IMG/VR virus record: IMGVR_UViG_3300027974_000021
Reading direction: 5' to 3' (one strand)
Length of the DNA stretch: 64,000 nt
Origin: a virus
The notes beneath the pieces are model-generated. The model worked only from the letters and a program-made list of their open reading frames with translations, was not told the origin of the DNA and did not search any database. Position numbers and translations under genes: made by a program. Below are positions 22,206-64,000 of the stretch, piece after piece; position 1 is the stretch's first letter; every line of letters begins with the position of its first letter.

Positions 22206-22210
22206 ATTAC

Positions 22211-22217
22211 TATTTAT
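22211..22217 (-). promoter_or_regulatory. Candidate late promoter (ATAAATA) upstream of gp2
   Basis: Reverse complement of TATTTAT. Confidence 0.45.
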
Positions 22218-22663
22218 TTACTATTGTCTAATCCTAAGTCTTTTTCTGTTAAAATAATGAACTTTTGATTACGATCTAAAGCATACTCTTTTGCAGCTTT
22301 CCATTTAGCTGAATTAACTATAAAATTATGACATTCTTTCAAATACCTACGTGTTTGGCTTCCAGGATATTCAGGCTGAATAGTTTGAGAATATGGTTTG
22401 ATTTCAACTAAATAAGTCTTAAGAGTATTAGTTTCTTTATCTTTAATAGTGACTGAAAAGTCAACGAAATATCTATGTATTCTTTTATCAATAGGAGAGC
22501 GATAGGGTACAATAACTTCCTCACTCTTCCAAGAAACTACTGCTGGATTTTTATCGCACCAAAGAGCGAATCTTGTTTCCCAAGATGAACGTAAATAGAT
22601 TGATGTAGGGTCGCCTACATACTTCTCAGGGAATATTGGTTTATATCGTCTAGTGTGAAACAT
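22214..22663 (-). CDS. gp4: Head completion nuclease gp4 (TnsA-like)
   Basis: PEKYVGD, RSSWE, HRYFVDF, VEIKP, AKWKAA, LTEKDL. Confidence 0.9.
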   Translation of the reverse strand: MFHTRRYKPIFPEKYVGDPTSIYLRSSWETRFALWCDKNPAVVSWKSEEVIVPYRSPIDKRIHRYFVDFSVTIKDKETNTLKTYLVEIKPYSQTIQPEYPGSQTRRYLKECHNFIVNSAKWKAAKEYALDRNQKFIILTEKDLGLDNSK

Positions 22664-46131: not shown

Positions 46132-49100
46132 ATGGCAAAAAAACTCTTCTTAGCATTCGATATTGATATCGCTCAAAATGCAATATTTTTAGATGGTAGT
46201 ATACCAATCGAAAGAATTTTATTAATCACAAACGTCACAGCTGGCACAAATAAAATCATTTACAATTTTGCTGATAGTACTTTAGGTGCTACTTCTTGCA
46301 CATTCATTCCATCACTTAATCAAACTAGATTAGTTCTTGCTACAAGTTTTGCATCTGCAGGTGCTGGTCCTGTCACAGTTAATTCTAAATTACAAATTTT
46401 TATAGAAGAAGAGTTCGCAAGAATTGGATTCGAAGAAGCCATGATCGATCCAGTGAACAAACTTCGTGTATCAAATCCAGAAAATTTAATTGACACTGAC
46501 TTTGAATATGGTACACAATCTACAAAATGGGAAACACTTCAAACAGTTTTAAACGTTCCTACAATCTATTCATCTTCAGGAGATTTAACTCTTGAAGGGT
46601 TAATTTCAATCAATACAACAAACAATTCAAAACAAGTAAGATGCGTGTTTTCACTTCCTCATAACCAAGTAATAGGGAATGCTATTCAAGTCACAGGTGT
46701 TAGCAATATCACTTGCGAAGGAGCATTCTTAGTCACAGGTGTTGTGAGCAGTACAGAATTTTTCTATGAAATAGATGCAAATGCAATTGCAACAGAAAAC
46801 GTTGCTGGTTCATATACTTCAGTTATTCCTGCTAAATTCTTTGAAGGATCAAATTTAATTTTAGATTTAAATGCAGTAGATTCATCAGATAATCCAGTTG
46901 CTCCAATTAAAACAAACGGAGCAAGTCCTTCAGTATTAACTATAACTACACTAGAACCACATGGTCTTAAACTTAATACAAAAGTTTATTTAAGACAAAC
47001 AATTGGTCCTAAAGAATTAACAATTACAGATCCAACATTAACTGCACCAGATGGTCGTCCTTACATTGATTCATCTCCAACTATTACTGTTGTAAACAAT
47101 ATAGATGCATCTTCTTCTACTGGTTCGGCAGATCTTCAATACGATCGTCCAGTTGTGACATGGGATTGGCAATCAACTTATGGTAAATATTTACAAACTT
47201 CAGATATTAATGCAGCTACAGATGAAATCACTTGGAATACTCACGGATTAACTGCAAATGCAGCACTACTTTTCAACGATCCAGTTCGTGGCGATGATAC
47301 AACTGCTACAACAAATGGTGGAATGACAGATGGAACAGTTTATTATGCTTCTATCGTAGATGCTAACACAATTAAACTAGCAACTGATTATGGTACACTC
47401 GCATCTTTTGTAAATCTTACAGCGATATCTACAACAAGAGGTTATCCTAGATTACAATTAGTTTATAAAGTTGAAGCTAGAAAAGATAGCACAAGATTTA
47501 CTGCTTTCTTCTCAAGAAACGTGACTACAGGTGCTACAGGAAACTATGATATAGGTTATATCAATAACACTAACACAAACTCATTTACGTGGAACGTACA
47601 AAGTATAATGGGAGCATCTCGTGTTCCAACTCAAGGAATAATTAATGAATTATATTTTGAAGGTGCAAACACTGCAGGAAGCCCAATTAATATTACTTAC
47701 TTAGCAAGAAATTATTTAAATCTTGGGAATGATAATATTGGTTATTCACTTGCTGCTAAAGGTTCAGGTGGTGGAAGCGAATTTCCAAATACAGATATCA
47801 CAAGATGTTTTTACCTTTCTAGTGGAGATTATTTCATAGATATTCAATACCAATTCGGTGCGATTAACAGAGATAAATTCGGAAACCCAACTTCTAACTA
47901 TCGTACAATTTGGTATATAGTAATTGATCACGTACCAACTTCTTTAAATACAGCTCATTCAGGATCAGATTTAGCTGGAGGACAATTTGGAAAAGGAACA
48001 CGTGCAGGAAACAGAATTATAGGATTCCAAGGTCGAACACCAAACGGATCTTCTACAAATGGTGTAGATGATGAATTTACATTCCAAGCAAATACAGTAA
48101 ATAATGGAAGATATGGAACTTCAAACCCTCCATTCAATTATCAAGTCACTGATACAACTACACTTGGAAGTTTTACAGTTGATTATCCACAATCTGGAAC
48201 TTCAGCTTATGGTACTACTTCTCAAATATATTACAGTTTTGCTGACGATTTAACTGCATTAAAAAATACATTTTATGCTCCAGCTCATGGAATTTTAAAT
48301 AATGAAACTTGTACACTTGCAATTACTGGTGCTGGCTATTCTACAACAAATAGATTTGCATTCGTAAACTCTTCGGCAACAGTTGTTCCTTATACTGTTT
48401 CTGAATTTGCAGTGACTGCAAACGTTGTAAATGCAAACTATTTAAGATTTACATCTAGAACTACACCATTTACAAATGATATAGCTTCTTTCCCAGCAGC
48501 CTTTAGTATTTCAAATAATAGAATAAATGAACTTTATAATACAGTTTATATTCAAAACCATAAAATATCAGGACAAACAACTGCAAATTATACAACTCCA
48601 GGAACTGTAATTGGTGGTTTAACAAGTGGAACAGATTATTCACTTCAATTCGTAAACGATTCTCGTTTAATCATTAAAACTGCAAATACTTCTGGTTCTG
48701 GTACTGCTACAACTTCTGCTTTCGGAAGCACATCTACTAGTTTAAATCAAGTGTTTACTGTAAATATTGAGACTCCACTAGGATCAGTACCAACACAATG
48801 TACTGTGACAATGGTTCAACATAGAGGAAGATTATCAACTTCAGCTCGTTTCTTAAGAATGAAATTTGCTGATAATATAGTTTATAACATTGGTGCAGTA
48901 AATGGACAAGATTCAAGTATTTTCCAAAATGAACCAACATGGATTCCAAAAGATATTTCATCATTCTTAACTGGTTCTCCAGTTGGTGTGAGTGTGACTG
49001 TTTCTCCAACATCAGGTGTAAGTTCTGCTGTTCCAGGAATGTCGAATTGGTGGGAAATTAGATTTTTAGTTTCAGCTACAGTAGGAACAATTCTTCTTTC

Positions 49101-51717
49101 TTCATCAGGTTCAGGAGTTCAAACATTTCAAATTCTTTCTCAAGATGGTGCTTATGATGGTATCTATGGAATAGCTACTATACCAAGTTCTCAGACATTT
49201 ACATTGAATGCTCCATTTAAAATTCCAGCAAGAACATACAGTTTCAATTCTCGTTCGGACGCAAATAGTGGTGCTGTTAATGCAACAAATGATACAATTG
49301 TTTTAGGAACACTATCTACTCCTTACAATCCTACAAATTTTTATCCAGGAGAATTAGTTTCTTATGTTCCAGGAGGTGGAAACACTGATATAATTAATGC
49401 TGCTGGTGTAAATAATACTTATCTTTATGCAATTCCTGTATCTGAGATAGCAATTTCTTTAGCTAACTCTTATGTTTCAGCGATTGGTGGACAAGTGTTG
49501 CAATTAACACCAACAGGTTCTTCACAAACTCAATCAATTCAAACATCAAACGTTTTGAAAACGACTAAACAATCAGGGTCAGTGAGTGGAACATCAGGTG
49601 CAAGAGTAATTACTGGTTCTGGTACACGATTCTTAAGTAAATTCAAAAGATTTGATTCAATTTATATTTACATTGGAGCTAGACTTTTTGAATATTTTAT
49701 TGATCGTGTTATTTCTGATACAGAAATGACGATAGATCCAGCACTTGCAGCATTCCCATCTACATTTTCAGCTGCAAACTATTCTACAATTAGTTCTGTA
49801 AACTTACGTCCAGATGGTTTCTCTTTACATAAATCATTCGATGGAGGTATTGATATAACAGCAGGAACTTCACCAAACAGCAAGATTGTTCGTCAATCTC
49901 GTAAATACTTCAGATATCAATCTGGTAAAGGTATTCAAAACTCATTTGCGATTAACTTTTCGCCTTTGAAAACTTTACAAAAACTTGAGTATGTAAACAT
50001 TGGTGGTGCTTCTCCAAATGCTATAAGAGCAACATGTCAAGAACCACATAATTTAATTGTAGGAAACAGAGTAATCATAGACAAAGCTATTGTGACAACT
50101 GGAAACAACATTTATAATGGAACGTTTACAGTGCATTCAATACAGAATATAAACACATTTACATATCTTGTTGGTGCTATACCTCAACAACAAAATGCTG
50201 CAGGATTCCCAGAATATGGTAGAGAATCTTGGTCTCAATCATCTATTCGTGCAGGTATGTTTGATGATGCAAATGGTTTCTTCTTTGAATATGATGGACA
50301 AAAACTATATGTTGTAAGAAGATCTAGTACACTTCAATTATCAGGATCTGTTTCTGCAACTAAAAACTCTCAAGTAATAAGTGGATTAAACACTGCATTC
50401 CAAACACAATTAATTGTTGGAGATCATTTACAAATACGAGGTCAAGTATATCGTGTTATCGCGATTGATTCTGATTCTCGTTTGGTTGTTCAACCTCCTT
50501 ATCGTGGAATTTCAGCATCTGGTATTAAAGCAACAGTTCGTGAAGACGTTCGTGTAGAACAAGCTAATTGGAACATAGATCCATGTGATGGAACTGGTGT
50601 CAACGGATACGCTCTTGATATACATAAAATTCAAATGTGTTATGCCGATTATTCTTGGTATGGTGCTGGTAAAATAAGATTTGGTACAAAAGACGCCAAA
50701 GGTCATATTCATTACCACCATGAATTTATACACAATAACAAATTAAATGAATCATATTTACGTTCAGGAAACTTACCTGCAAGATATGAAATTGAAAACG
50801 GAGATTCTCCGACATCAGCTCCTACATTATTCCACTTTGGTACATCTGTTATTATGGATGGTACGTTTGATGATGACGATGCTTACTTATTTACAGCACA
50901 GTCAAAACCTTTCGTGTTCGCACTTGGTTTAACTCAAACTGTGACATCATCAGCAGCAAGTTCATTCAATGAAATTACATTAAACTCACGTCGTGTGTTT
51001 GTGTATTCTTTCCAATGTTCTCAAGCTGATGCTGATAAAGCGATTGTGGGACAATTAATTAAAGATGCGACTGGTAATATACCAGATGGTACTTATGTTT
51101 CTCAGGTTCAAAAAGCTGGAGCAAGTTCACGTATATTTACTTCTTTCCCTGCAACAACATCAGTTCCAAACAATACAGAAATACCAACTTCTACATCATT
51201 TACAATTGGTGAAAACGCATTCGGTAATGGAGCAGTTGACTTAACACGTCCTATTCCTCTTATTTCGATTCGTTTAGCACCTGCAGTTGACTCTGGTATA
51301 ACTGGTGCAGTAGGTGAAAGAGAAATTATAAATCGTATGCAAATGAAATTAGACTCAGGTGCAATCACTACAAATAAAGCAGTGAATGTGTTTTTCATTC
51401 TAAATGGAAACCCATCTAAATTGACTTTTGAAAAAGTTCAATCTCCATCTTTATCTAATGCTATATCACACGATACAGGTGATATTATTAAAGATGGAAC
51501 TGTTATTTTCTCATCTCAAGCTTCAGCTGGTTCAACAAACTTCAATTTAAGTGGTTTGATTGATATGGGTAATTCTATTTTGGGTGGTGACTCAGTTTAT
51601 CCTAATGGTCCTGACTTATTAACTATTGCGATTCAACCTACGGATACTTCAACGATTACTCAAGCTTCGCCACTACAAGTAAACGGAAAATTATCTTGGT
51701 CTGAATCTCAAGCTTAA
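46132..51717 (+). CDS. Giant virion structural protein, 1861 aa
   Basis: KLRVSNPENLIDTDFEYG, RQSRKYFRYQSGKG, YSWYGAG, SGNLPARYE. Confidence 0.78.
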   Translation: MAKKLFLAFDIDIAQNAIFLDGSIPIERILLITNVTAGTNKIIYNFADSTLGATSCTFIPSLNQTRLVLATSFASAGAGPVTVNSKLQIFIEEEFARIGFEEAMIDPVNKLRVSNPENLIDTDFEYGTQSTKWETLQTVLNVPTIYSSSGDLTLEGLISINTTNNSKQVRCVFSLPHNQVIGNAIQVTGVSNITCEGAFLVTGVVSSTEFFYEIDANAIATENVAGSYTSVIPAKFFEGSNLILDLNAVDSSDNPVAPIKTNGASPSVLTITTLEPHGLKLNTKVYLRQTIGPKELTITDPTLTAPDGRPYIDSSPTITVVNNIDASSSTGSADLQYDRPVVTWDWQSTYGKYLQTSDINAATDEITWNTHGLTANAALLFNDPVRGDDTTATTNGGMTDGTVYYASIVDANTIKLATDYGTLASFVNLTAISTTRGYPRLQLVYKVEARKDSTRFTAFFSRNVTTGATGNYDIGYINNTNTNSFTWNVQSIMGASRVPTQGIINELYFEGANTAGSPINITYLARNYLNLGNDNIGYSLAAKGSGGGSEFPNTDITRCFYLSSGDYFIDIQYQFGAINRDKFGNPTSNYRTIWYIVIDHVPTSLNTAHSGSDLAGGQFGKGTRAGNRIIGFQGRTPNGSSTNGVDDEFTFQANTVNNGRYGTSNPPFNYQVTDTTTLGSFTVDYPQSGTSAYGTTSQIYYSFADDLTALKNTFYAPAHGILNNETCTLAITGAGYSTTNRFAFVNSSATVVPYTVSEFAVTANVVNANYLRFTSRTTPFTNDIASFPAAFSISNNRINELYNTVYIQNHKISGQTTANYTTPGTVIGGLTSGTDYSLQFVNDSRLIIKTANTSGSGTATTSAFGSTSTSLNQVFTVNIETPLGSVPTQCTVTMVQHRGRLSTSARFLRMKFADNIVYNIGAVNGQDSSIFQNEPTWIPKDISSFLTGSPVGVSVTVSPTSGVSSAVPGMSNWWEIRFLVSATVGTILLSSSGSGVQTFQILSQDGAYDGIYGIATIPSSQTFTLNAPFKIPARTYSFNSRSDANSGAVNATNDTIVLGTLSTPYNPTNFYPGELVSYVPGGGNTDIINAAGVNNTYLYAIPVSEIAISLANSYVSAIGGQVLQLTPTGSSQTQSIQTSNVLKTTKQSGSVSGTSGARVITGSGTRFLSKFKRFDSIYIYIGARLFEYFIDRVISDTEMTIDPALAAFPSTFSAANYSTISSVNLRPDGFSLHKSFDGGIDITAGTSPNSKIVRQSRKYFRYQSGKGIQNSFAINFSPLKTLQKLEYVNIGGASPNAIRATCQEPHNLIVGNRVIIDKAIVTTGNNIYNGTFTVHSIQNINTFTYLVGAIPQQQNAAGFPEYGRESWSQSSIRAGMFDDANGFFFEYDGQKLYVVRRSSTLQLSGSVSATKNSQVISGLNTAFQTQLIVGDHLQIRGQVYRVIAIDSDSRLVVQPPYRGISASGIKATVREDVRVEQANWNIDPCDGTGVNGYALDIHKIQMCYADYSWYGAGKIRFGTKDAKGHIHYHHEFIHNNKLNESYLRSGNLPARYEIENGDSPTSAPTLFHFGTSVIMDGTFDDDDAYLFTAQSKPFVFALGLTQTVTSSAASSFNEITLNSRRVFVYSFQCSQADADKAIVGQLIKDATGNIPDGTYVSQVQKAGASSRIFTSFPATTSVPNNTEIPTSTSFTIGENAFGNGAVDLTRPIPLISIRLAPAVDSGITGAVGEREIINRMQMKLDSGAITTNKAVNVFFILNGNPSKLTFEKVQSPSLSNAISHDTGDIIKDGTVIFSSQASAGSTNFNLSGLIDMGNSILGGDSVYPNGPDLLTIAIQPTDTSTITQASPLQVNGKLSWSESQA

Positions 51718-51735
51718 AAGGAAAGAAATAATCCT

Positions 51736-52434
51736 ATGGCTTACTTGGGTAGAGATCCAATACATGGTAATTCTGAAATACAGGTGTTCGCTCCGAATGG
51801 AAATTCGACAACATTTGCTTTAGATTTTCCAATTGGTTCAGCAGGAAGTATTCTTTTAATTAAGAATGGTTTAATTCAAAAACCAAACACAGATTACACA
51901 ATTATAAATGGGGGCACTTCTATTTCAATAACAGGTGCTGCTCTTTCAGCAGGTGTTAGTCTATTCGCAATTTATCTTTCAACACAATATCTTCAAAATA
52001 CAATCCCTGATAATTCAATCAGTGCTAATAAACTTTCATCTTCATTAAGAGGTAAATTTCCTAGTGATGTTGTAGTTCCAGCAGGTGGTTCAACAGCACT
52101 TACTTATGGTGTTGGAAAATATTTCATTTTAGGGAATGATCTTAATTACAGTATAACATTACCAGCTTCTCCTGCGATTGGAGATATGTTTTGGATAAGT
52201 AGACCAGCAGGAAATGGAGTTGGTGCAATTACTGTGACTATCAATACAAATTCACAAAATTTATCAACTGGACAAGGTAGTATTGTCACACAAAATAGTG
52301 CTACTGCAACTATTTCATTAACAGGATCATCATCATTTACTTCAAATGATAGAAAAAATCGTTGGTTTGTGTTTGTAGGAGTAATTGGTGGTACAGATTT
52401 TGGTTGGTTTGAGTATAAAATTGATGCTTTTTAA
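51736..52434 (+). CDS. Short fibre / virion protein
   Basis: MAYLG start, NGNSTTFAL, ITLPASPAIGD. Confidence 0.68.
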   Translation: MAYLGRDPIHGNSEIQVFAPNGNSTTFALDFPIGSAGSILLIKNGLIQKPNTDYTIINGGTSISITGAALSAGVSLFAIYLSTQYLQNTIPDNSISANKLSSSLRGKFPSDVVVPAGGSTALTYGVGKYFILGNDLNYSITLPASPAIGDMFWISRPAGNGVGAITVTINTNSQNLSTGQGSIVTQNSATATISLTGSSSFTSNDRKNRWFVFVGVIGGTDFGWFEYKIDAF

Positions 52435-52446
52435 TTTTTAATTTTA

Positions 52447-52453
52447 ATAAATA
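52447..52453 (+). promoter_or_regulatory. Candidate late promoter ATAAATA
   Basis: Intergenic, upstream of 52464. Confidence 0.5.
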
Positions 52454-52463
52454 GGTATAAGAA

Positions 52464-52799
52464 ATGGCACAAATAACAGACTTTTTTATAGATCAAGGAT
52501 CAGATTGGTCTGCTGTTTTAACATTTAATAATACTGATGGAACACCAAGAGATTTTACAAATTGTACAGTTTCTGGGCAAATGCGAAAAGGTTATGGTTC
52601 AACGACTTATACTGCTATAACTGCTACATTTGTTGCTCCAAATTCAAGTGGAAAAGTTAAACTTGCCTTAGGAAATGCAACTTCAACAGCAATGAAAGCT
52701 GGAAGATATGTGTATGATGTTGAATTAATAGATTCATTCAGCTTAAGAAGTAGATTAGTTGAAGGAATTATAACAATAACACCAGAGGTCACAAGGTAA
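52464..52799 (+). CDS. Conserved virion structural protein
   Basis: IDQGSDW, QMRK, AGRYVYDVE, RLVEG.ITITPEVT. Confidence 0.75.
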   Translation: MAQITDFFIDQGSDWSAVLTFNNTDGTPRDFTNCTVSGQMRKGYGSTTYTAITATFVAPNSSGKVKLALGNATSTAMKAGRYVYDVELIDSFSLRSRLVEGIITITPEVTR

Positions 52800-53087
52800 A
52801 TGGCTGAAACATTAACTGTAAGTGTAGATTCACAAGGTAGTACGATTAGTCCGAGTAATACTACTCTGACAACTTCAACTACAACAGCAGGTGGTGGTTC
52901 AACAATTACGACAATAGGAATTCAAGGAGCATCAGGAGCAGTTGTTCCAATAAGTGAAAATGTTCAAGTTGATATAGTATCAGAGGGATTAAATAATGGT
53001 TCATTATTAGTTTATAAAACAAATACTTCGAAATGGACAGCAACTAAAACATTAGATCTACAAATAGTAGACAGTGGCGAATTTTAA
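52800..53087 (+). CDS. Small virion/fibre adaptor protein
   Basis: NGSLLVY...W, ends VDSGEF. Confidence 0.62.
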   Translation: MAETLTVSVDSQGSTISPSNTTLTTSTTTAGGGSTITTIGIQGASGAVVPISENVQVDIVSEGLNNGSLLVYKTNTSKWTATKTLDLQIVDSGEF

Positions 53088-53099
53088 TAGGAGAAAAAA

Positions 53100-55682
53100 A
53101 TGGCATCAATTATAAGAATTAAACGTTCAACGACAGCAGGTAATCCCGCAACACTTGCAGCAGGAGAACTTGCATATTCAGGTCTTACGGATAACGACTC
53201 CAATGGTGGTGATCGTCTCTACTTAGGACTTGGTACAGAAACAAACGGAAATGCTGCGAGTCACTTAGTTATAGGTGGAAAGTATTTTACAGATTTATTA
53301 GACCACACTCGTGGTACATTAACTGCATCATCTGCATTAATTACAGATTCAAATAGCAAACTTGACAATTTAAAAGTAGATAATTTAGATCTAAACGGAA
53401 ATACAATATCTTCTACAGATGCCAATGGAAATATTGTACTTGATCCGAATGGAACTGGTTATGTTTCAATTACTGGAACAAATGGACTTATAATTCCTGT
53501 TGGTACTACAGCTCAAAGAGCACCATCAGTACAAGGTGCAGTTCGTTATAATACAGATACATCTTCTTTCGAAGGATATACAGGATCAACTTGGGGATCA
53601 TTAGGTGGAGTTAAATCAGTTGATGGTTTAACGTACATTTCAGCTGAGAGTGCTCCAGGATCTTCTAATGACACACTTTCTTTTGTCACTGATGGTACTG
53701 AGAGAATGTCTCTTGATACTGACAGTTTAGATATTGCAGCTTCAATTTTAACAACAAATATTAATTCAACTTTAACTTCAACATCAACTTCAACTGGCGC
53801 ATTAGTTGTTGATGGTGGTGTTGGTATTGCTGAAAATTTATATGTTGGTGGTATAATCAATATTGATAATTTAAGATTAGATACAAATACATTATCATCT
53901 ACAAATTCAAATGGAAACATTACACTTGCTCCAAATGGAACAGGTGATGTTTATTTAGATGCAGATACAGTAAGAATTGGAGATAGTAATACGAATGCTA
54001 CTCTAACTACAAATGGAACAGGTGATTTAATTCTTAATACAAATTCTGGTACAAATACAGGTTCTATTACAATTGAAGATAATGTAAATGGTAATATAAC
54101 TTTATCACCAAATGGTACTGGTAAAACAGTTTTAAATAATCCATACATTAATGGTACAACAGACACTCTTGCTGAATTCATTTATGATACAGTAGGTGGT
54201 GCAGTCACTTCAGGAACTGGTATTACTGTCACAAATAGTGATGCAGGAAATAGTTCTACAATTAATATTACAAACACAGCTGTCACTGCTGGTTCTTATG
54301 GTTCAACTACAGCAATCCCTACATTTACAGTAAATGCACAAGGACAATTAACTGCTGCTAGTACAGAAAACATTTCAACTACATTAAATATTGCAGGTGA
54401 TACAGGAACAGATGCGATTGCTCATTTAATAGATACATTAACATTTACTGGTGGTGAAGGAATTGATACTGCTGTCACAAATAATGTATTAACAATTTCA
54501 GGAGAAGATGCTACAACTACTAATAAAGGTATCGCTTCTTTTGCTACTGCTAATTTTGATGTATCGTCTGGTGCAGTTTCTACAAAAAACATTACACTAG
54601 GAACATCAACTTTAACAAATGGTTCAACTACAAATTCTCTTGCTGGATTACAACAATTAGATGTAGATAATTTACAATTTAATGGTAATTCGATTATTTC
54701 AACAGACACTAATGGTGGTATTACACTTGATCCGAATGGAACAGGACACGTTTCAGTTAGCAGTGCATTAATTAAAGATGTTGCAACTCCAGTTGATCCA
54801 ACTGATGCTGCAAACAAAGCATATGTTGATGCTGTTGCTGAAGGATTACATATTCATGCTTCAGTACTAGCTGCAACAACAGCTGCACTTACTGGTTCTG
54901 TGACTTACGATAATGGTACATCAGGAGTGGGTGCTACATTAACTTTAGCAACACCAATTAACACATTAGATGGTTATTCATTAGTAAATGGTGATCGTAT
55001 ATTAATTAAAAACCAAGCAAACACTGCTCATAATGGTATCTATATTCGTACATCTTCAACAGTATTTACACGTGCTGCTGATTTTAACACAGTAGCTGAA
55101 ATTGCATCTGGTGACTTTTTATTCGTATCAAATGGTACAGTGAATGGAAAAACTGGTTGGGTAAATACAACTAAATCTATTGCTGTTGGTACAACTGCTG
55201 TTGTATTTGAACAATTTTCAGGAGCAGGAACTTATATTGCTGGTTCTGGATTAGCATTTACAGGAAATACAATTGATATCGTATTACAAACATCTGGTGG
55301 TCTAGAAATAGTTTCTGACGAATTAGGATTAAAATCTACAACTGCTGGAAGTGGTTTAACTTTCTCATCTGGTGTTCTTAATATAGGTGGAACTGCAGAT
55401 CGTATTACAGTTAATAATGATTCAATTGATATTGCTTCAACTTATGCTGGACAAAATACAATTACAACATTAGGAACAATTTCTACTGGTGCATGGCAAG
55501 GTACTACAATCGGCACAATTTATGGTGGTACAGGAAATACATCATATTCAATTGGTGACTTATTAGTTGGTGCTGCAGCAAATGCTTTAAATAAATTATC
55601 AATTGGTACGACTGGAAAAGTATTACAATCAAATGGAACGACTTTAGTGTATGATGATGTGGACGGAGGAACATACGCATAA
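53100..55682 (+). CDS. Tail fibre protein
   Basis: IIRIKRS..GELAY N-terminus, repeated NTISSTDxNGxIxLxPNGTG, DAANKAYVD, ends DGGTYA. Confidence 0.78.
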   Translation: MASIIRIKRSTTAGNPATLAAGELAYSGLTDNDSNGGDRLYLGLGTETNGNAASHLVIGGKYFTDLLDHTRGTLTASSALITDSNSKLDNLKVDNLDLNGNTISSTDANGNIVLDPNGTGYVSITGTNGLIIPVGTTAQRAPSVQGAVRYNTDTSSFEGYTGSTWGSLGGVKSVDGLTYISAESAPGSSNDTLSFVTDGTERMSLDTDSLDIAASILTTNINSTLTSTSTSTGALVVDGGVGIAENLYVGGIINIDNLRLDTNTLSSTNSNGNITLAPNGTGDVYLDADTVRIGDSNTNATLTTNGTGDLILNTNSGTNTGSITIEDNVNGNITLSPNGTGKTVLNNPYINGTTDTLAEFIYDTVGGAVTSGTGITVTNSDAGNSSTINITNTAVTAGSYGSTTAIPTFTVNAQGQLTAASTENISTTLNIAGDTGTDAIAHLIDTLTFTGGEGIDTAVTNNVLTISGEDATTTNKGIASFATANFDVSSGAVSTKNITLGTSTLTNGSTTNSLAGLQQLDVDNLQFNGNSIISTDTNGGITLDPNGTGHVSVSSALIKDVATPVDPTDAANKAYVDAVAEGLHIHASVLAATTAALTGSVTYDNGTSGVGATLTLATPINTLDGYSLVNGDRILIKNQANTAHNGIYIRTSSTVFTRAADFNTVAEIASGDFLFVSNGTVNGKTGWVNTTKSIAVGTTAVVFEQFSGAGTYIAGSGLAFTGNTIDIVLQTSGGLEIVSDELGLKSTTAGSGLTFSSGVLNIGGTADRITVNNDSIDIASTYAGQNTITTLGTISTGAWQGTTIGTIYGGTGNTSYSIGDLLVGAAANALNKLSIGTTGKVLQSNGTTLVYDDVDGGTYA

Positions 55683-55732
55683 TTGATATAATATCTTAGA
55701 TTATATAATCTACTAACAAATAGGAGACAAGT

Positions 55733-55921
55733 ATGGCTAAGAAGAAACAAGAAACTGTTTCAGATATTATTGATAGAATAGAAGAAGATTTGATGACTCT
55801 TCGTGATAAAGTTGAAGAACTTAAAAATCACGAGTGCGAGGAGGACGAAGATGACTCAGAAGAAGATACCGACTGGGATGAAGATTCTGACTCTACTAGC
55901 ACTGAGGAAGATGAAGAATAA
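55733..55921 (+). CDS. Small, very acidic protein (coiled coil + D/E tail)
   Basis: AGGAG SD; C-terminal half mostly Asp/Glu/Ser/Thr. Confidence 0.7.
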   Translation: MAKKKQETVSDIIDRIEEDLMTLRDKVEELKNHECEEDEDDSEEDTDWDEDSDSTSTEEDEE

Positions 55922-55958
55922 ACAAAATAAAAAAAAGAAAAAATAAGGAAACTAACTG

Positions 55959-56312
55959 ATGGCGACAATAATTAAATTAAAAGGTTCAGCAACTCCGAAT
56001 CTTGCGCCATCAGTTAATGATTTAAGTTATAAAGAAGTTGCTTTAAATTACGCAGACGGAAGATTATATTACAAAAACGCTGCAGGACAAATAGCATATT
56101 TTAGTGCTGATGTTGTAGGTGGTCAAGAAGGACAAGATGACGATCTATTTAATCAATTAGCGTTTGCAATTAAATTTGGTGCATTCCCTTTAGCTGATTA
56201 TGGTAATATAACTGACCCAACAAGTGATGCTTTTGGACAAGTAGTTTTATTTACTTACGATAATATGGCAACAGAGGGATTAAGACTTATTGACAACGAA
56301 GGATTAGTATAA
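55959..56312 (+). CDS. Small fibre-associated protein
   Basis: IIKLKGS..EVALNYADGRLYYKN N-terminal domain. Confidence 0.68.
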   Translation: MATIIKLKGSATPNLAPSVNDLSYKEVALNYADGRLYYKNAAGQIAYFSADVVGGQEGQDDDLFNQLAFAIKFGAFPLADYGNITDPTSDAFGQVVLFTYDNMATEGLRLIDNEGLV

Positions 56313-56313
56313 A

Positions 56314-59300
56314 ATGCCAACACAATTACAATTACGAAGAGGGACAACAAACCAACATAACACATTTACAGGTGTTGTTGGTGAAGTCACAATTAATACT
56401 ACAAAGAAAACAGCAGTCGTACATGATGGATCAACAGCAGGTGGTCTTGAATTACTTCGTGCTGATATGTCAAACGTATTCGCTTCAGCAACTCCAACAA
56501 TCACTTCTTTAAACACATCAGGTGACGTATCTGTAGGTGGTAATTTAACTGTCACTGGTACAACTACATTTAATGGTGGCACTATCACTATGGGTGATGC
56601 TGACACTGATAACGTTGTATTTGGTGCTGATGTAAATTCAAATATATTACCAAATACTGATAACACATACGCATTAGGTAGTTCATCTAAAAAATGGTCA
56701 GACGTTAGATCAGTTTTATTAACTACAACAGGTAATGCTACAATCGGTGGTGATGTAGCTGTCAATGGTGGCGATCTAACAACTTCTCAAACAACTTTCA
56801 ATTTATTAAACACAACAGCAACTACTTTAAACGTAGGTGGTGCAGCCACAACATTAGAAATTGGTGCTGCCACTGGTACAACTAACATCAATAACAACTT
56901 AGACGTAGATGGCGATGTTAACATTGATGGTGGTGACTTAACAGTATCAACTACTACATTTAATCTTGCTAATACAACTGCCACAACATTGAACGTTGGT
57001 GGTGCTGCTACATCTTTAAATCTTGGTGCTGGAACAGGTACTACAACAGTTAATAATAATTTAACAGTCACAGGTAATCTTACTGTTTCTGGTACAACAA
57101 CTACAGTAGATTCAACAACAATTAATGTTCAAAATGCTTTCGTATTTGAAGGTGCAACTGCTGATGGTTTTGAAACAACTTTAACAACAGTTGATCCAAC
57201 AGCAGACAGAACACTTTCTCTTCCAGACGCAACTGATACTTTAGTTGGTCGAGCAACAACAGACACATTATCAAATAAAACTTTTACTCTTGCTCAAAGT
57301 GGTGGTACAAGTGCATATGCAACTAAAAGAGTTTTACAATACAACGAAGGAACTGGAGTAATTACATATAGTAATAAATTAGATGCTGTAAGCCCATACA
57401 TTACAGGATATGGTTCAGAAATTCACGTTAGTCCAGTTGCTCTTGATAACACAGGTAATGGAACCATTGGCGATCCAGTTAAAACAATTGCTAAAGCATT
57501 AGAATTAGCTGCACTTGCTTTCGAAACAACTACTGCTGGCTCAAGAAAAACAATTATTCTACATCCAGGAGATTATGCAGAAAATGTCACACTTGATACT
57601 CAATATATTGTTTTAACCACACACGAGGCAATAGGCAAAAATACAACTCTTTCTGGCACATTAACTATTTCAAAAGGTTGTACTGTTAATGGACTGAAGA
57701 TGACAAATCTTATTATTTCAGCAACTTCAGCAACAGGCTCAGTTGATATTATTAATTGTACAGTGACAACAGCAACTACAAAAACATCAAGTGCATATAC
57801 AAATTTTAGATTATGCGATTTATCTTCATCTACATTAAGTATTACTGGTGCTGGCTCAGTCGTGCTGAATGGTGGTAATTATGGTACTGTCACTGTAAAT
57901 AATGCTTCTGCTGCAGTTTTGGCTAAAGCAGTTATTACAATGGCACCAGTGACTTTAACAGCAGGAACATTACAAATTGCTGACACAGTTATCTACTCTG
58001 CTACTAATACATCTAATGCTATAACACAAAGTGCTGGATCATTTTTAACATTAAACAATTGTCAAACATTAATACCTGATTTAACAAACGTAGCAAGAAA
58101 TAGTTTTGGTGGATATTATTCTATTCTTCATTCTGTTTATGATAAAGCAAACTCTACATTCGGTGGAACATCATTATCAGCAGTTTCATATAGTCAGTAT
58201 GTTAATGCTGATAGATTAACTCTAAATGGATCAACATCTGGTGCTACTATAATTAACGCAACTGCTTCTGCAGGAACTACTACATTAACACTTCCAGCTG
58301 CAACTGACACTTTAGTTGGAAAAGCTACAACAGACACATTGACCAACAAGACCATCGACGCCAACGGCACGGGCAATTCCATTTCAAACATAGAAGTGGC
58401 GGACTTTGCCGCTGGAGTTATCGACACTGACCTTGCCTCGGTGTCCGCGAGCGATGACACATTGCCCTCTGCCAAGGCAGTCAAGGCCTACATCGACGCA
58501 CAGAACACAGCACAAGCGATTACATTTGTTGGAGATGACTCAACAGGAACCTCAGTAAACTCTGGAGAGATATTCAAGATAGCGGGCACAAGCAACATCA
58601 CAACTGCAGTATCAGGAGATACTTTAACCATCACAGGACCAAATTTAAGTGCATATCTAACCAATTCCACAATCACAGTGGTAGGTGATGACTCCACAGG
58701 CACCACTCTTAATTCAGGAGAAACATTCAAAATTGCTGGTACTCAGAACATAACCACAGCAGTGTCTGGAGACACTTTAACTATCACAGGTCCCAATCTG
58801 TCAGGTTATCTAACTGCTGTACCTAAAATTATTGACATCAATGAGATATCATCATCTGATTCATCTGCCATACAGATCAATGATGCTGTAAACATTGCTG
58901 GTGCATTGAGTGTGAGTGGCAATGTTATTTCAAATGTACAAAATCCAATAGCGGATCAAGATGCTGCAACCAAGAATTATGTGGATAATCAAATTTCTGG
59001 TGTGTCCACTTCATTCTATGTGGAAGATGGTACATCTACTATTGCCACAATAGACTCAGGAGACACTCTAAGAATCATTGGATCAGGCGGAATTACCACA
59101 GCAGTATCAGGAGATACCCTAACTATTACTGGTGCTAATCAAGCACAGGGTATTACATTCTTTGATTCTGCTTCTACAAGTACAGCAATACCCGATGGAG
59201 GCGCCCTACAAATTACCAGCGGAGAGGGTATCAGCACTTCTATCCTAGGAAATGTGATAACTATAACAAATACTTCGACGCAGCTGGAAATTGATGGCGG

Positions 59301-59361
59301 CAGTGCTTATTCAATATACAATGCCATTTCTGAAGCGTTGATAGACGGAGGAACTGCTTAA
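56314..59361 (+). CDS. Mosaic tail fibre protein (Mtd-N-like start)
   Basis: QLQLRRGTT..FTGVVGEVT..VVHDG; internal repeats; composition break near 58340. Confidence 0.8.
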   Translation: MPTQLQLRRGTTNQHNTFTGVVGEVTINTTKKTAVVHDGSTAGGLELLRADMSNVFASATPTITSLNTSGDVSVGGNLTVTGTTTFNGGTITMGDADTDNVVFGADVNSNILPNTDNTYALGSSSKKWSDVRSVLLTTTGNATIGGDVAVNGGDLTTSQTTFNLLNTTATTLNVGGAATTLEIGAATGTTNINNNLDVDGDVNIDGGDLTVSTTTFNLANTTATTLNVGGAATSLNLGAGTGTTTVNNNLTVTGNLTVSGTTTTVDSTTINVQNAFVFEGATADGFETTLTTVDPTADRTLSLPDATDTLVGRATTDTLSNKTFTLAQSGGTSAYATKRVLQYNEGTGVITYSNKLDAVSPYITGYGSEIHVSPVALDNTGNGTIGDPVKTIAKALELAALAFETTTAGSRKTIILHPGDYAENVTLDTQYIVLTTHEAIGKNTTLSGTLTISKGCTVNGLKMTNLIISATSATGSVDIINCTVTTATTKTSSAYTNFRLCDLSSSTLSITGAGSVVLNGGNYGTVTVNNASAAVLAKAVITMAPVTLTAGTLQIADTVIYSATNTSNAITQSAGSFLTLNNCQTLIPDLTNVARNSFGGYYSILHSVYDKANSTFGGTSLSAVSYSQYVNADRLTLNGSTSGATIINATASAGTTTLTLPAATDTLVGKATTDTLTNKTIDANGTGNSISNIEVADFAAGVIDTDLASVSASDDTLPSAKAVKAYIDAQNTAQAITFVGDDSTGTSVNSGEIFKIAGTSNITTAVSGDTLTITGPNLSAYLTNSTITVVGDDSTGTTLNSGETFKIAGTQNITTAVSGDTLTITGPNLSGYLTAVPKIIDINEISSSDSSAIQINDAVNIAGALSVSGNVISNVQNPIADQDAATKNYVDNQISGVSTSFYVEDGTSTIATIDSGDTLRIIGSGGITTAVSGDTLTITGANQAQGITFFDSASTSTAIPDGGALQITSGEGISTSILGNVITITNTSTQLEIDGGSAYSIYNAISEALIDGGTA
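56767..57062 (+). repeat. Two imperfect tandem copies (period 162 bp) of GGDLT..TTFNL.NTTATTLNVGGAAT..NNNL
   Basis: Copies start at 56767 and 56929. Confidence 0.8.
58519..58812 (+). repeat. Two tandem copies (period 153 bp) of IT.VGDDSTGT..NSGE.FKIAGT.NITTAVSGDTLTITGPNLS.YLT
   Basis: GDD codons at 58531 and 58684; more diverged copies near 59020, 59150, 59525, 59660 and 61545. Confidence 0.85.
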
Positions 59362-59362
59362 C

Positions 59363-60973
59363 ATGGCACAGATTAGACTACGCAGAGATCAATCAGCGAA
59401 CTGGACATCACAGAATCCCACTCTAGCAGCCGGAGAAGCTGGATTTGAATTAGATACTCGCCGAATCAAAATTGGTGATGGTGTCACAGCATGGAATGCT
59501 TTGGCCTACGTAAGAACAGAATTCACAATAGCAGATGATGATTCTACCTCAGAATCATTTTATTCGGGACGAACACTTAATATAAAAGGCTCAGGAATTG
59601 TTACTACGTCACTGGTAGATGACACACTGACTATCGGTGCTACTAGTCCTGCACAAGGTATCACATTCGTAGGCGATGATTCCACTGGCATAAGAATTTC
59701 TGATGGAGAGACAATAAAGATTGCTGGAGGCACAGGCATCAGTACATCAATGTCATCAGATTCCACTGGTGACGTATTGGTTATCAGTGCTGACGGAACC
59801 ACTGCAGTGGCCAATGTGCTGTACGTTTCCAAGAGTGGATCAGACAGCAACAACGGTCAAACTCTAGCCACATCATTCTTAACTATCAAAGCAGCTCTAG
59901 CAGTGGCCACAGCAGGAACCACAGTGTTTGTTAAGAGCGGAGATTACACAGAAGCCAACCCAGTGACCATACCTGCAAACGTATCACTGGTGGGAGACAA
60001 TCTAAGAACCACCACAGTGAGACCACTCACTACTAATGCTGATTTATTCTATATCAATAATAGATGTTATGTGACAGGATTTACTTTTAGAAGCCATGTG
60101 TCGCCAGCAGCAGCATTTGCATTCAATCCTAACGGATCAGCAGGCACCATTACAACCAGTCCTTATGTGCAGAACTGTTCCAGTATCACAACCACAGGAA
60201 CAGGTATGAGGATTGATGGTTCGCATGCTGCAGGATTAAAATCCATGGTGTTAGATGCTTATACACAATTCAATGAAGGTGGTCGAGGTGTACATATTTT
60301 AAACAATGGTTATGCACAGCTGGTGAGTTTGTTCACTATCTGTTGCAACGTTGGTGTACTCTGCGAATCTGGAGGACAGTGTTCTATCACCAACTCCAAC
60401 ACATCTTTCGGTACATATGGATTGAAAGCAGATGGTGTAGGTTCGGCTTTATTCACAGGATTGACCAACGGTGCCAATCAAAGCGGAACTACTATTATTA
60501 TTGATGGATTGTCTACCAATAAACCAGCAGTGAATGACGTGGTGAAATTTGATGGCGATAATAATTATTATACAATTGTTTCTTCCTCTGGTCCTGACAG
60601 CAACGGAGAATCCACAGTAGTATTATTGGAGACTGTAGTAAATGTAATACCTAACAATACTACAGCAACATTCTATAAAAGAAGTTTAATATCTGCTCTA
60701 GGACACACATTTGAATATGTAGGTTCTGGAGATACTTTAACCACAGCTCTACCATCAGGGGGTGGAGTACCTATACAGGCAAATGAAACAGTTTCAGTAA
60801 ACAGTGGACAGGTTTATTACACCAGCACGGATCACTTGGGTGATTTTAGAATTGGTGATGACTTGTTGTTCAATAGAGCAACAGGAACAATAACAGGAAG
60901 GACGTTTAGCCGAAGTTTATTTGCGGTTCTAACTCCTTACATATTAGCCCTAGAGGGTTCATTAAACAACTAA
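59363..60973 (+). CDS. Fibre/spike protein: hyaluronidase-type N-terminal domain plus pectin-lyase-like beta-helix
   Basis: IRLRRD..NWTSQNPTLAAGEAGFELDT..KIGDG; LYVSKSGSDSNNG, GDNLRTT, SPYVQNCSS. Confidence 0.75.
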   Translation: MAQIRLRRDQSANWTSQNPTLAAGEAGFELDTRRIKIGDGVTAWNALAYVRTEFTIADDDSTSESFYSGRTLNIKGSGIVTTSLVDDTLTIGATSPAQGITFVGDDSTGIRISDGETIKIAGGTGISTSMSSDSTGDVLVISADGTTAVANVLYVSKSGSDSNNGQTLATSFLTIKAALAVATAGTTVFVKSGDYTEANPVTIPANVSLVGDNLRTTTVRPLTTNADLFYINNRCYVTGFTFRSHVSPAAAFAFNPNGSAGTITTSPYVQNCSSITTTGTGMRIDGSHAAGLKSMVLDAYTQFNEGGRGVHILNNGYAQLVSLFTICCNVGVLCESGGQCSITNSNTSFGTYGLKADGVGSALFTGLTNGANQSGTTIIIDGLSTNKPAVNDVVKFDGDNNYYTIVSSSGPDSNGESTVVLLETVVNVIPNNTTATFYKRSLISALGHTFEYVGSGDTLTTALPSGGGVPIQANETVSVNSGQVYYTSTDHLGDFRIGDDLLFNRATGTITGRTFSRSLFAVLTPYILALEGSLNN

Positions 60974-60991
60974 AGGAGAGGAGGATAAAAA

Positions 60992-61327
60992 ATGGCATTG
61001 GCATTGAACGTATTCAGAACAGTAACAGCAGAATTTACAACTGCAACTGCGACTGTTTATACAGCACCGGTATCATACACAGGTATCGTACTGTTGGCAC
61101 AGATCGCTAACGTGACTGGTACATCTGGTACGGTAACAGTTAGTGTGACAGATCCAACATCTACAACAACCGAATTATTGAAAGATTTTGCTATACCTGC
61201 AAATGATGCAGCATCAGCAATATCTGGAAAATTAGTTATACAGACCGGCTGTGAATTAAAAATTTCAGCAAGTGCAAACAGTAAATTCAAACTTACTTTG
61301 AGTATACTAGAAAGCGCGAACGAATAA
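60992..61327 (+). CDS. Small beta-rich virion/adaptor protein
   Basis: GAGGAGG SD; paralog of 42921..43244. Confidence 0.7.
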   Translation: MALALNVFRTVTAEFTTATATVYTAPVSYTGIVLLAQIANVTGTSGTVTVSVTDPTSTTTELLKDFAIPANDAASAISGKLVIQTGCELKISASANSKFKLTLSILESANE

Positions 61328-61339
61328 TAAAGGAAAAGA

Positions 61340-64000
61340 ATGAGTAGTGGAAGAATAAAGAGCGGCAAAGTAAAAAAGATTGCACCTACAGCGGTATCCG
61401 CGGATAGGTATAATTTTATACAGTTGTCAGAAACAGAACCAGATCTAGGCGTACCTGCAGCAACGGGGTATGTACTAACCAGCGACACGACTGGAACTAG
61501 ATCTTGGGTTACGGCTGCTTCAACTCTGGAAACTTCTCCTATTACTTTCGTAGGCGATGACAGCACAGGCACTGGTGTTAATCTTGGAGAGACATTTAAA
61601 TTCAAAGGTGGAAACAACATCACCACTGCAGTGATTGGAGATGAGTTAACCATCTCTGTTAGTAAAAATTTAGATGTCAATGAATTATCCAGCTCAGACA
61701 GCACAGCCATTCAGATCAACGATGCTGTAAATGTGTCTGGAAACCTAACTGCCTACACTTTTAATACCGAAGGATTATTGATTTATCGTAATAATATTTC
61801 AGCCATTCGTTCCAATGATAATCTTGTTTTAAAGGCCAGTGCTTCGGGTAGAGTTTATGTTGAAGGCAACCTAGAAGTAACTGGTACTGCTTATCTAAAC
61901 AATGTAACCACAACTGGCACTGCCACTCTGCCTACCTTAGTAACCAACACAATATCCAGTGATGATTCAACCACAATATTAATTGATGATTCTGTGAATG
62001 TAACTGGATCAGTAAAAGTGGGCAACACATTGACAGTTAGTAATGCTGTTATTAATAGAATTGTAACCGATGATTCTAGTAATATCAACATTAATGGTGC
62101 TCCGGTTAATTTTGCAGCTGGTGGAGAAGTTTTATATAAAGAAACTGCATATCTATCAGATCTTGCTGATGTGGACGTAGAAAATCCACAGCTGGATCAA
62201 TTCTTAAGATACAACGGCACCCAGTGGGTGAACGGATCAGGTGCTGCAGTTTCTGCAGGTGTGGGAGTTTCTTTCTATCTCACAGATCCTACAATCACTG
62301 CCACAGGTGCTAACAATAATAACGAAATTATCACCATGCAGAACTTTCCTGGCACTGCAGGAGAACAGACAGTTTCTAAAGCCATCAACAACACCACAGA
62401 TATATTGGCAGCTTTCGTTATTACTTCTGCTCTAAACAGAACAGCCATTGATGCAGGTAACTGGTCATTCATTAACCATGCTTATGTGGACAGCAGTTCA
62501 GGCACAACCACTATTGCGAACTACATATACAAAGCAGTGCCTTTCGTAACCGGCACAGTGACCATCACAGGCACAGGCACATCACGCACTGCCACAGCGT
62601 CCGCAGGCACGCCATTTGCTACCGCAGCTATCGATGCTTCAGCCACCAATACCACAGCTTCATATCTACAAACACCACAGGGTCTGTATCAGATCACTGC
62701 TCGATCGTCCGACACAGTGGTCACTATCACCACTCCATCGGGCTACACCAATGAGTCAGCTGTGGCTGGTACTGTGTGGAAGAAATTATTTGCTTCTAAT
62801 ACATCACCTGTGCTTAATTCCACTGTGGCTGCCAACTACAACACAGAATCCACACAACCTTTATACTCTATCACTGCTGCTACAAAATTAGCCATGATCG
62901 TGTTTGGTACCACAAGTAATTCTAGAACACTGACCTACGTGTATGATGGCCAAGACAATGCTTCATTGGTGGTGTCTCCTCTGTCACTGTTACACGACAG
63001 TTTGGCTGGTCTACAAGGTGGCACATCAGGAGAATTCTACCACTTAACATCCGCAGAATACACTGGTACAGGCACAGGCAACTTTGTGCGAGCATCTGCT
63101 CCTACCATCACAAATCCTTCAGTATCAGGCACACTAAATGTTAACACAATTAATTCTACAGATTCTACTGCCATACAAATCACAGATGGTGTGAACATAT
63201 CTGGTACTCTAAATGCCAAAACTCTAGTAACCACGAACATCAGTTCAGAAGATTCTACCGCTATACAAGTCACTGGTGGTATCAATGTGACAGGTTCCGT
63301 GAGATTGGGTGGATTACAATATCCAGTCACAAATGGAGAACTGGGACAGGTATTGAGCAGCTCTGGCACAGGCTCTGTGGACTGGGCAACATTGACCGGT
63401 GGTGGTGGATCTAACGTAGCAGCAGATTCAGTTACATTCACAGGATTCGGCAGCAACAATATTGTTATATCAGATCCCAACATATCTGTGGATCTAGCAG
63501 GAGTGGTTATATATGGTGCTGTGGATGACTCTCAGGCCATTGGAACCTCTCCAGGTACATTTGACTCATGGAGTGCCAATGATTATGACAGTGCATTCTA
63601 TATTGCTGCTACACTGAACAACACAGCAGTGGAATATGGCACTGCTTCTATATCTGTGGCAACCAATGGATCAGATGCTTTTGTTTCATCAGGTGGAGTG
63701 GTTTCAACAGGCAACACAGGTCAACTGACCTACTCAGCAGGATATGTTTCTCCCACTGTTACTTTATCCGGCACAGGCACAACTGCCAACAACACTGCCA
63801 GCTATCTAAGAATAAATCTAGGAGATGACACTGCTACATCTGCTACTACATCTGCAGCCATGGCAGTGGTCAATAGTATAACAGTTTCTGCTAGCACAGT
63901 GACCAACAACACATCTGTGGGAGATTCTGTGGGTATAACCACAGTGGCAAAAATTGCGGATCAGTTCACAGGTACCAGCGTAGACAGTACTGTTGCCTAT
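61340..64000 (+). CDS. Large fibre protein, truncated by the window end (absent from the ORF track because no stop is reached)
   Basis: AAGGA SD, ATG 61340, MSSGRIKSGKVKK...EPDLGVP; GDDSTG and SSxDSTAIQI repeats; frame appears open to 64000. Confidence 0.8.
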   Translation, partial: MSSGRIKSGKVKKIAPTAVSADRYNFIQLSETEPDLGVPAATGYVLTSDTTGTRSWVTAASTLETSPITFVGDDSTGTGVNLGETFKFKGGNNITTAVIGDELTISVSKNLDVNELSSSDSTAIQINDAVNVSGNLTAYTFNTEGLLIYRNNISAIRSNDNLVLKASASGRVYVEGNLEVTGTAYLNNVTTTGTATLPTLVTNTISSDDSTTILIDDSVNVTGSVKVGNTLTVSNAVINRIVTDDSSNININGAPVNFAAGGEVLYKETAYLSDLADVDVENPQLDQFLRYNGTQWVNGSGAAVSAGVGVSFYLTDPTITATGANNNNEIITMQNFPGTAGEQTVSKAINNTTDILAAFVITSALNRTAIDAGNWSFINHAYVDSSSGTTTIANYIYKAVPFVTGTVTITGTGTSRTATASAGTPFATAAIDASATNTTASYLQTPQGLYQITARSSDTVVTITTPSGYTNESAVAGTVWKKLFASNTSPVLNSTVAANYNTESTQPLYSITAATKLAMIVFGTTSNSRTLTYVYDGQDNASLVVSPLSLLHDSLAGLQGGTSGEFYHLTSAEYTGTGTGNFVRASAPTITNPSVSGTLNVNTINSTDSTAIQITDGVNISGTLNAKTLVTTNISSEDSTAIQVTGGINVTGSVRLGGLQYPVTNGELGQVLSSSGTGSVDWATLTGGGGSNVAADSVTFTGFGSNNIVISDPNISVDLAGVVIYGAVDDSQAIGTSPGTFDSWSANDYDSAFYIAATLNNTAVEYGTASISVATNGSDAFVSSGGVVSTGNTGQLTYSAGYVSPTVTLSGTGTTANNTASYLRINLGDDTATSATTSAAMAVVNSITVSASTVTNNTSVGDSVGITTVAKIADQFTGTSVDSTVAY

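Follow-up and report, generated by a model that had tools for sequence, protein, structure and literature searches.

A composition break within a fibre gene of a freshwater T4-like phage contig is very probably an assembler jump between two phages through a shared fibre cassette

In T-even phages, distal tail-fibre and adhesin genes are shuffled within or next to their most conserved short motifs, and chimeric fibres are the result (Tetart et al. 1998, J Mol Biol 282:543, as discussed in PMC3157838). The fibre locus analysed here resembles the cases from that account with which we compare it, since in several independent contigs the breakpoints fall on a short motif, TDTL(S/T)NKT. Neither this motif nor the phage group is that of the T-even cases, as we deal with freshwater relatives of Melnitz and the pelagimyophages, and the exchanged part differs as well, being a C-terminal adhesin in those T-even cases and an internal beta-helix domain inserted in the fibre here. 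A second known phenomenon is the avoidance of restriction sites in phage genomes. Similarly, GGCC, CCGG, GTWAC and ACSGT are absent from more than 58 kb of the DNA studied and from related contigs; however, one related contig (L032) keeps GTWAC, yet has no GGCC, CCGG or ACSGT.

The third phenomenon is the misjoining of genomes at a common repeat during de Bruijn graph assembly. The present case is like such misjoins in that each part has its match in a different independent genome, both parents are identical in the tract where the join lies, and one parent is a complete circle placed between two copies of the repeat. Other assemblies also often break at or near the repeat: contigs L082 and L089 end 570–880 nt upstream of it, and L126 begins at the motif. 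Unlike an IS element or an rRNA gene, the repeat here is a laterally transferred fibre domain, and such an artefact would therefore point to a real exchange.

The window, i.e., the whole stretch of 64,000 nt that was analysed, covers positions 97,392–161,391 of a 161,391-bp contig and is thus its final 64 kb. The lineage of its left side is designated A-type and the second T4-like lineage, found on its right side, B-type. The features of the window are the following:

1–58266, plus strand: A-type genome segment of a T4-like freshwater myovirus, 33% GC, without GTWAC, GGCC, CCGG and ACSGT
56314–59361, plus strand: fibre ORF as assembled, 1015 aa; A-type residues 1–681 (Mtd_N N-terminus) joined to B-type residues 682–1015
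57211–57281, plus strand: motif copy 1 (LSLPDATDTLVGRATTDTLSNKT); the cassette of B-type contigs has its left edge at 57259–57262, inside TDTLSNKT
57259–58340, plus strand: shared fibre cassette, a predicted right-handed beta-helix domain of A-type composition, present in both lineages
57977–58266, plus strand: tract with no difference between the window, A-type L124 and B-type L082; the assembly misjoin probably lies here
58282–58352, plus strand: motif copy 2 (LTLPAATDTLVGKATTDTLTNKT), containing the composition junction at 58335–58341
58341–64000, plus strand: B-type fibre locus, beginning with the 340-aa C-terminal part of the fibre
59363–60973, plus strand: 536-aa fibre of the B-type locus (Mtd_N, phrog_17885)
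60992–61327, plus strand: 111-aa ORF of the B-type locus
cut by the contig end, plus strand: last fibre of the B-type locus, first 887 aa only (full 1857 aa in L082 and L087)

A preliminary description of this DNA had reported an abrupt codon shift near 58340, inside the fibre ORF and without loss of frame, and our calculations bear this out. The GC content is 32.7% in positions 1–58340 and 42.8% in 58341–64000, while GC3 within the ORF equals 0.13 over the first 675 codons and 0.35 over the last 340. Maximum likelihood places the change point at nt 58333, the reading frame stays intact across the step, and the codon style switches inside motif copy 2 from ...ACA GAC ACA to TTG ACC AAC AAG ACC.

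The short sites follow an all-or-none distribution. GTWAC does not occur in the left 58,340 nt, where 118 sites are expected from the base composition and 76 from a Markov model, but it occurs 15 times in the right 5,660 nt (12 expected). Its confinement to the downstream part had been noticed previously from 12 listed sites, and those at 62457, 62989 and 63431 had been missed. GGCC and CCGG are likewise absent from the left side (expected, by base composition and Markov model, 41.5 and 9 for GGCC and 41.5 and 5.4 for CCGG) and occur seven times each on the right, beginning at 58485 and 59430, respectively, the first positions given earlier. With an even spread of sites, GTWAC would be confined to the last 5,660 nt with a probability of 1.6e-16, and GGCC and CCGG with one of 4e-8 each. 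The left side also contains no ACSGT (expected 57 by base composition and 9 by the Markov model), CCGCT/AGCGG or CTATAG. The lack of short palindromic sites is significant there, and the same was found in L002, L024, L029, L039 and L124. In a comparison of both sides of the window for candidate late-promoter sites, none were seen in the right block.

The two sides match different independent genomes that continue differently past the join, and the earlier view that they come from lineages differing in site avoidance holds. Wherever they were compared, independent contigs agree with the left side at 100% identity, namely L130 (5021–13913), L129 (5021–17614), L133 (9754–22641) and L124 (46320–58266). 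The gp6 homologue of this lineage is 41% identical to those of Methylophilales phage Melnitz and Pelagibacter phage HTVC008M. When the window was mapped on the L124 record via L124 and L130 (both 100%), a 144,711-bp circle with a 127-nt end overlap was obtained, and L129, which comes from a different sample, crosses the joint of this circle. L124 first differs from the window by a single SNP at 58267, where the window has the B-type base; it diverges at 58335/58341 and is unrelated from 58341 on. Its fibre protein, P0003, equals residues 1–681 of the 1015-aa protein with one substitution and is unlike it thereafter. Past the junction, L124 has its own 1,003-residue fibre C-terminus, which has 33.5% GC and lacks the forbidden sites; gp13, gp14 and gp15 come next.

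Meanwhile, the right side is 92.7% identical to L082, 89% to L088, 86% to L085 and 83% to L087, all four of which have 39–44% GC and contain all of the 'forbidden' sites. A megablast search of each side separately against 50,697 phage records gave no match, and the region is absent from the nearest genome record, G001.

The two copies of the motif, at the junction and near 57220, had been recognized before; they are 77% identical in nucleotide sequence. Their role becomes apparent from the B-type contigs. The native B-type sequence reads ...ITGPDLSSFITASS-TDTLTNKT-IDANGTGNSISN..., and the pure B-type fibres of L083, L096, L104 and L108 have one intact, uninterrupted motif. In three independent B-type contigs (L082, L089 and L128), the A-type segment 57259–58340 is inserted within their own TDTLTNKT; there the cassette is 96–97% identical to that of the window and has B-type sequence on both flanks. 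Thus, in some B-type phages a low-GC A-type beta-helix segment spans one TDTL(S/T)NKT motif to the next. The junction seen in motif copy 2 is also present in L082, L089, L126 and L128, but the crossover point within the motif is not the same in L089, the window and L082, and in L128 the junction lies one motif copy further on and the segment has one extra A-type repeat unit. The lineage breakpoints coincide with the conserved motif at both edges, 57259 and 58340. Taken together with the divergence of A-type L124 at 58335/58341 and the departure of L002 from the window at 58349, this agrees with the earlier proposal that the motif is a recombination boundary.

The fold of the cassette is predicted to be a tailspike-like beta-helix. 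The core of the structure model has a pLDDT of >90, and the best PDB matches are the tail fibres of Agrobacterium phage 7-7-1 (9rkv, E=1e-5), tailspikes and pectin methylesterases, while Pfam and PHROGs assigned no family to it. The cassette was found in 57 of 124 other proteins compared, at variable positions. The fibre of the other T4-like lineage has thus received this tailspike-like cassette, exactly inside TDTLTNKT, from the lineage that is low in GC and avoids the sites, and later rearrangements took place between copies of this motif. The break at 58335–58341 is accordingly a true sequence junction, but one of a B-type phage that received A-type DNA.

Because the cassette is inserted in B-type, the two lineages have about 1.1 kb in common at 96–100% identity, and over at least 290 nt of it they do not differ at all. 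The last difference of the window from L082 and L089 is at 57976, and from 57977 to 58613 the window and L082 are identical. Therefore, the join sits in sequence that is near-identical in both parents, and the misjoin is likely to lie inside the shared cassette, at about 57977–58266, rather than at 58340. The preliminary description had itself named chimeric assembly as the case against its reading; a chimera is now favoured, but its seam is not the junction at 58340, which is genuine.

The left end of the contig provides the mirror image of the window. Its layout rests on word sharing and on unchecked model-made annotation, not on directly read sequence: the first 14 kb have 110 of 110 words in common with the native A-type C-terminus, 142 of 180 with the cassette (a count equal to that of the window's own copy) and 52 of 84 with a B-type 350-aa gene located upstream of the fibre in L128. 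By this measure, the native A-type C-terminus lies in the first 14 kb together with B-type fibre genes and another copy of the cassette, so that a reciprocal junction, a second copy of the repeat and a span of one parent between the copies are all present in the contig, although partly on the evidence of word sharing and unchecked annotation. The lengths add up exactly (9,939 + 144,711 + 1,081 + 5,660 = 161,391), with the left junction predicted at 9,939, and the stretch of A-type sequence is as long as the whole A-type circle and one cassette together. Where the contig end cuts the last ORF, the missing remainder (P0122 from L082) was found nowhere else in the contig; hence, its two B-type ends are not continuous with each other.

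We conclude that the composition break is very probably the result of an assembler jump between two freshwater T4-like phages through the shared cassette and not of a recent swap. In this scheme, the assembler would have entered the cassette from the B-type side, exited on the A-type side, traversed the whole circular A-type genome, re-entered the cassette and exited on the B-type side. The resulting order would be B-up, cassette, full A-type circle, cassette, B-down, with the window representing the second pass. If so, the A-type fibre with a B-type tip would be a linkage artefact, a gene of neither phage. Here, A-up denotes A-specific sequence left of 57259 and B-down B-specific sequence right of 58341. 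The independent contigs L082, L089 and L128 all contain B-up, cassette and B-down. An A-type N-terminus joined to B-down was seen in none of the recovered contigs and proteins, which is weak evidence, as close records may lie outside the searches. The exact junction patterns were found only in B-type contexts, in viral contigs L125, L126 and L127 and metagenome contig L128, and the left-edge pattern matched only L125 and L127. Among 5.8 billion protein clusters, the window's own protein was the only one to match the 1015-aa fibre over more than 70% of its length, and an exact look-up of this protein returned no record.

The earlier interpretation was a real and recent swap, in which an A-type phage exchanged its distal fibre for the B-type block at the motif or cassette and the contig is its genome. 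The breakpoint at a conserved motif, the fact that the two lineages do exchange DNA, and other A-type relatives (L002, P0004 and P0005) that differ downstream of the same motif would all suit it, and the swap would have to be very recent because no divergence from L124 is seen in the left flank. In spite of this, the native C-terminus still exists at the other end of the contig, beside a second cassette copy and joined to B-type sequence at the mirror junction. Nothing was replaced, as the A-type span is the full circle plus one cassette; the B-type ends are not joined to each other, one molecule with all of this sequence would be more than 17 kb longer than the 144.7-kb A-type genome, and there is no second example among the contigs and proteins searched. 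The recent acquisition of the right-hand block by this phage is therefore not upheld, and we consider the swap very unlikely. It is also hardly credible that the step arose within a single genome, from a local shift in codon use or amino-acid composition. B-type fibre genes are indeed richer in GC (40–50%) than their own flanks (33–38%), but GC3 shifts too, the sites wholly missing on the left are as frequent on the right as expected, and at this place the distal fibre of the identical A-type genome, L124, is low in GC and free of the sites; L002 refutes such a change as well.

T4-like phages recombine intensely during replication. Both junctions could thus be real DNA, i.e., reciprocal recombinants or branched replication intermediates from a co-infection by A-type and B-type phages that were threaded together by the assembler. 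The contig has exactly the two reciprocal joints, and recent contact is suggested by the tracts in which the lineages do not differ; since the tract shared with L082 (57977–58613) is perfectly identical, the real recombination between the lineages is recent and a real recombinant is not far-fetched. Nevertheless, rare intermediates are normally not assembled into the main path, the complete difference in site avoidance speaks against a habitual common host, and an assembly graph with one shared repeat yields the same picture without any recombinant, so this origin also appears very improbable. A real recombinant was our own initial reading, held at the time as rather probable, and it was given up in view of the mirror junction, the sum of the lengths and the second copy of the cassette. 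There is a small chance that the two lineages often meet in one host and that both joints (B-up/A-down and A-up/B-down) were present in the sample DNA. If true, the contig would capture live recombination across a portable 8-residue motif instead of an assembler error, and two differing anti-restriction strategies would coexist on one host.

With the assembler jump as the preferred explanation, the 161-kb record most likely does not represent one genome. The 1015-aa fibre protein is probably not a real protein, and the layout of the left end suggests that neither, probably, is the giant fibre gene located there. Any conclusion about host range or restriction drawn from the 161-kb record would be wrong; read as a swap, it would have recorded a very recent exchange of a host-range module under different restriction pressure. 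Meanwhile, the motif-bounded transfer of the cassette between the two lineages is real, an event of a kind already known, and it is an example of how motifs guide the shuffling of fibres in uncultured freshwater phages.

In the window, genes for homologues of the T4-type baseplate proteins gp5, gp6, gp7, gp8 and gp48 precede fibre genes, and the homologue of gp6 shares 41% identity with its counterparts in Methylophilales phage Melnitz and Pelagibacter phage HTVC008M. Judging from these genes, the source of the window is an uncultured aquatic T4-like myovirus. A homologue of the ribosomal protein S21 (PF01165) and a gp32 single-strand-binding protein are encoded a few kilobases apart, at about 10632–10979 and 15754–16641.

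The preliminary description had placed an abrupt composition break inside ORF 56314–59361, in an unbroken frame and at a repeated motif, with forbidden sites reappearing to the right, and the computed profiles bore this out. The GC content is 0.327 in 1–58340 and 0.428 in 58341–64000, and the GC3 of the ORF steps sharply from 0.13 in the first 675 codons to 0.35 in the remaining 340. The change point is best set at nucleotide 58333, across which the frame is continuous. GTWAC is absent left of the junction, against expectations of 118 sites by base composition and 76 by a Markov model, and the right side has 15. Neither GGCC nor CCGG is present on the left, with 41.5 sites expected for each, and the right side has seven of each, beginning at 58485 and 59430, respectively. 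The site counts gave no ACSGT, CCGCT/AGCGG or CTATAG in the left side of the window. The two motif copies, at 57211–57281 and 58282–58352, are 77% identical, and the codon style switches within the second.

The left and right sides of the window come from two different lineages, here named A-type and B-type, respectively. The A-type contigs L002, L024, L029, L039 and L124 have a GC content of 33–35%, and GTWAC, GGCC, CCGG and ACSGT are absent from all five, save one GTWAC in L039. With 10 GTWAC sites but no GGCC, CCGG or ACSGT, contig L032, also low in GC, shows that A-type sublineages do not all avoid the same sites. CCGCT/AGCGG is nearly absent from the lineage (window 1–58340, L002, L024, L029, L032, L039 and L124), and CTATAG is absent from window 1–58340, L124 and L039 and present in some relatives.

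The closest A-type relative of the window is L124, from a 144,838-bp JGI contig. It matches the window without a difference over 46320–58266, has a single SNP at 58267 and shows no relation to it from 58341 onward. With one substitution, residues 1–681 of the window fibre protein are also found in the L124 fibre protein (P0003, 1684 aa), which then runs on for ~1,000 residues with many motif repeats, encoded by low-GC DNA without forbidden sites; gp13, gp14 and gp15 come after the fibre gene. The alignment of L002 (92% identity to the window) also ends at 58349. The native distal part of the A-type fibre (P0121; L124 12101–15052) contains about a dozen (T/A)xTDTLVG(R/K)ATTDTLTNKT units and a Gly/Ala-rich C-terminal tail (...GGGGGASTATVAALAIALGGA). 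The regions of the window with A-type matches at 100% identity (contigs L124, L129, L130, L132 and L133) are as follows:

Window 5021–22641: A-type region of 100% identity
Window 46320–58266: A-type region of 100% identity

Mapping the window onto the L124 record via two loci, both at 100% identity, gave a 144,711-bp circle with a 127-nt end overlap, and L129 covers the circle joint; the A-type genome is thus 144,711 bp, circular or permuted. Since the A-type phage recurs at 100% identity in several independent lake metagenomes (JGI 3300027759, JGI 3300009184 and Logan ERR2848482), its population is abundant and nearly clonal.

The B-type contigs L082, L084, L085, L087, L088 and L089 have a GC content of 39–44% and contain all of the sites avoided by the A-type (GTWAC, GGCC, CCGG and ACSGT). 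These phages are T4-like as well; beside their fibre locus lies a gp15 homologue, encoded on the other strand. The cassette (57259–58340) is found at 96–97% identity, with B-type sequence flanking both sides, in L082, L089 and L128, which come from three different samples. Cassette-free B-type fibres (L083, L096, L104 and L108) read ...ITGPDLSSFITASS-TDTLTNKT-IDANGTGNSISN..., and where the cassette is present, the A-type segment interrupts exactly this 8-residue motif. L128 has one additional A-type repeat unit, of 74 residues, between the cassette and B-type sequence (about residues 605–700 of a 1379-aa ORF, reverse strand), the B-type part being joined at the next motif copy. The second motif of L089 is a hybrid, GRATTDT as against GKATTDT in L082 and the window. 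The extra unit and the hybrid motif fit independent deletions between neighbouring motif copies. The switch point within the motif differs among L089, the window and L082 (range 58305–58340), which indicates that recombination between motif copies took place more than once. In the B-type contigs the cassette forms a low-GC island (0.32–0.35 upstream of the junction versus 0.44–0.46 downstream), which argues for transfer from the A-type to the B-type. The junction at 58340 is genuine, but in B-type phages. Further right, two tandem 153-nt (51-residue) ITFVGDDSTG...TLTITGP units with 73% mutual identity occupy 58519–58661 and 58672–58814; L082 is one unit short at the equivalent place, and each of the two fibre genes that follow has the unit again, at 59660 and 61541.

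The window fibre protein was traced to one contig only, of 161,391 bp. The window matches L082 over 57977–58613 with one mismatch; since its identity with L124 runs to 58266, the three have a 290-nt tract in which they do not differ. The layout of the left end of the contig was deduced from word sharing in an index look-up: the first 14 kb have in common 110 of 110 words with the native A-type C-terminus, 142 of 180 with the cassette (equal to the window's own copy) and 52 of 84 with the 350-aa B-type gene that precedes the fibre in L128. For the ORF truncated at the contig end, the continuation was sought in the rest of the contig and not found. The sum 9,939 + 144,711 + 1,081 + 5,660 equals the 161,391 bp of the whole contig exactly and predicts the left junction at contig position 9,939.

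Because of the 290-nt common tract, the word sharing at the left end, the 144,711-bp circle and the exact length sum, we consider it highly probable that the contig is an assembly chimera, namely a B-type fibre locus into which the complete A-type circle was inserted at the common cassette. There is little chance that it represents a real recombinant genome, as one molecule of this form would be more than 17 kb longer than the A-type genome, with both B-type ends still open; real reciprocal joints are similarly improbable. With an assembly chimera, the A-to-B linkage in the contig is very probably an artefact, and the recent swap that had been proposed for the window genome does not stand as a real feature: the two parts would have been linked in assembly via the common cassette.

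The cassette is predicted to fold as a right-handed beta-helix (core pLDDT above 90, mean 67), and the best structural matches of the model are tail fibres of Agrobacterium phage 7-7-1, several tailspikes and pectin methylesterases. Among the 124 other proteins collected, 57 contain the cassette, and its position in them varies. It is also carried, at 72% protein identity, by L012 (IMGVR_UViG_3300027759_004177), a 356,865-bp contig as large as a jumbo-phage genome, from the sample that also gave L124.

In T-even phages, fibre segments are known to be exchanged at conserved motifs (Tetart et al. 1998, as discussed in PMC3157838). The cassette insertion is one more instance of such exchange, here in freshwater phages, and no novel type of event.
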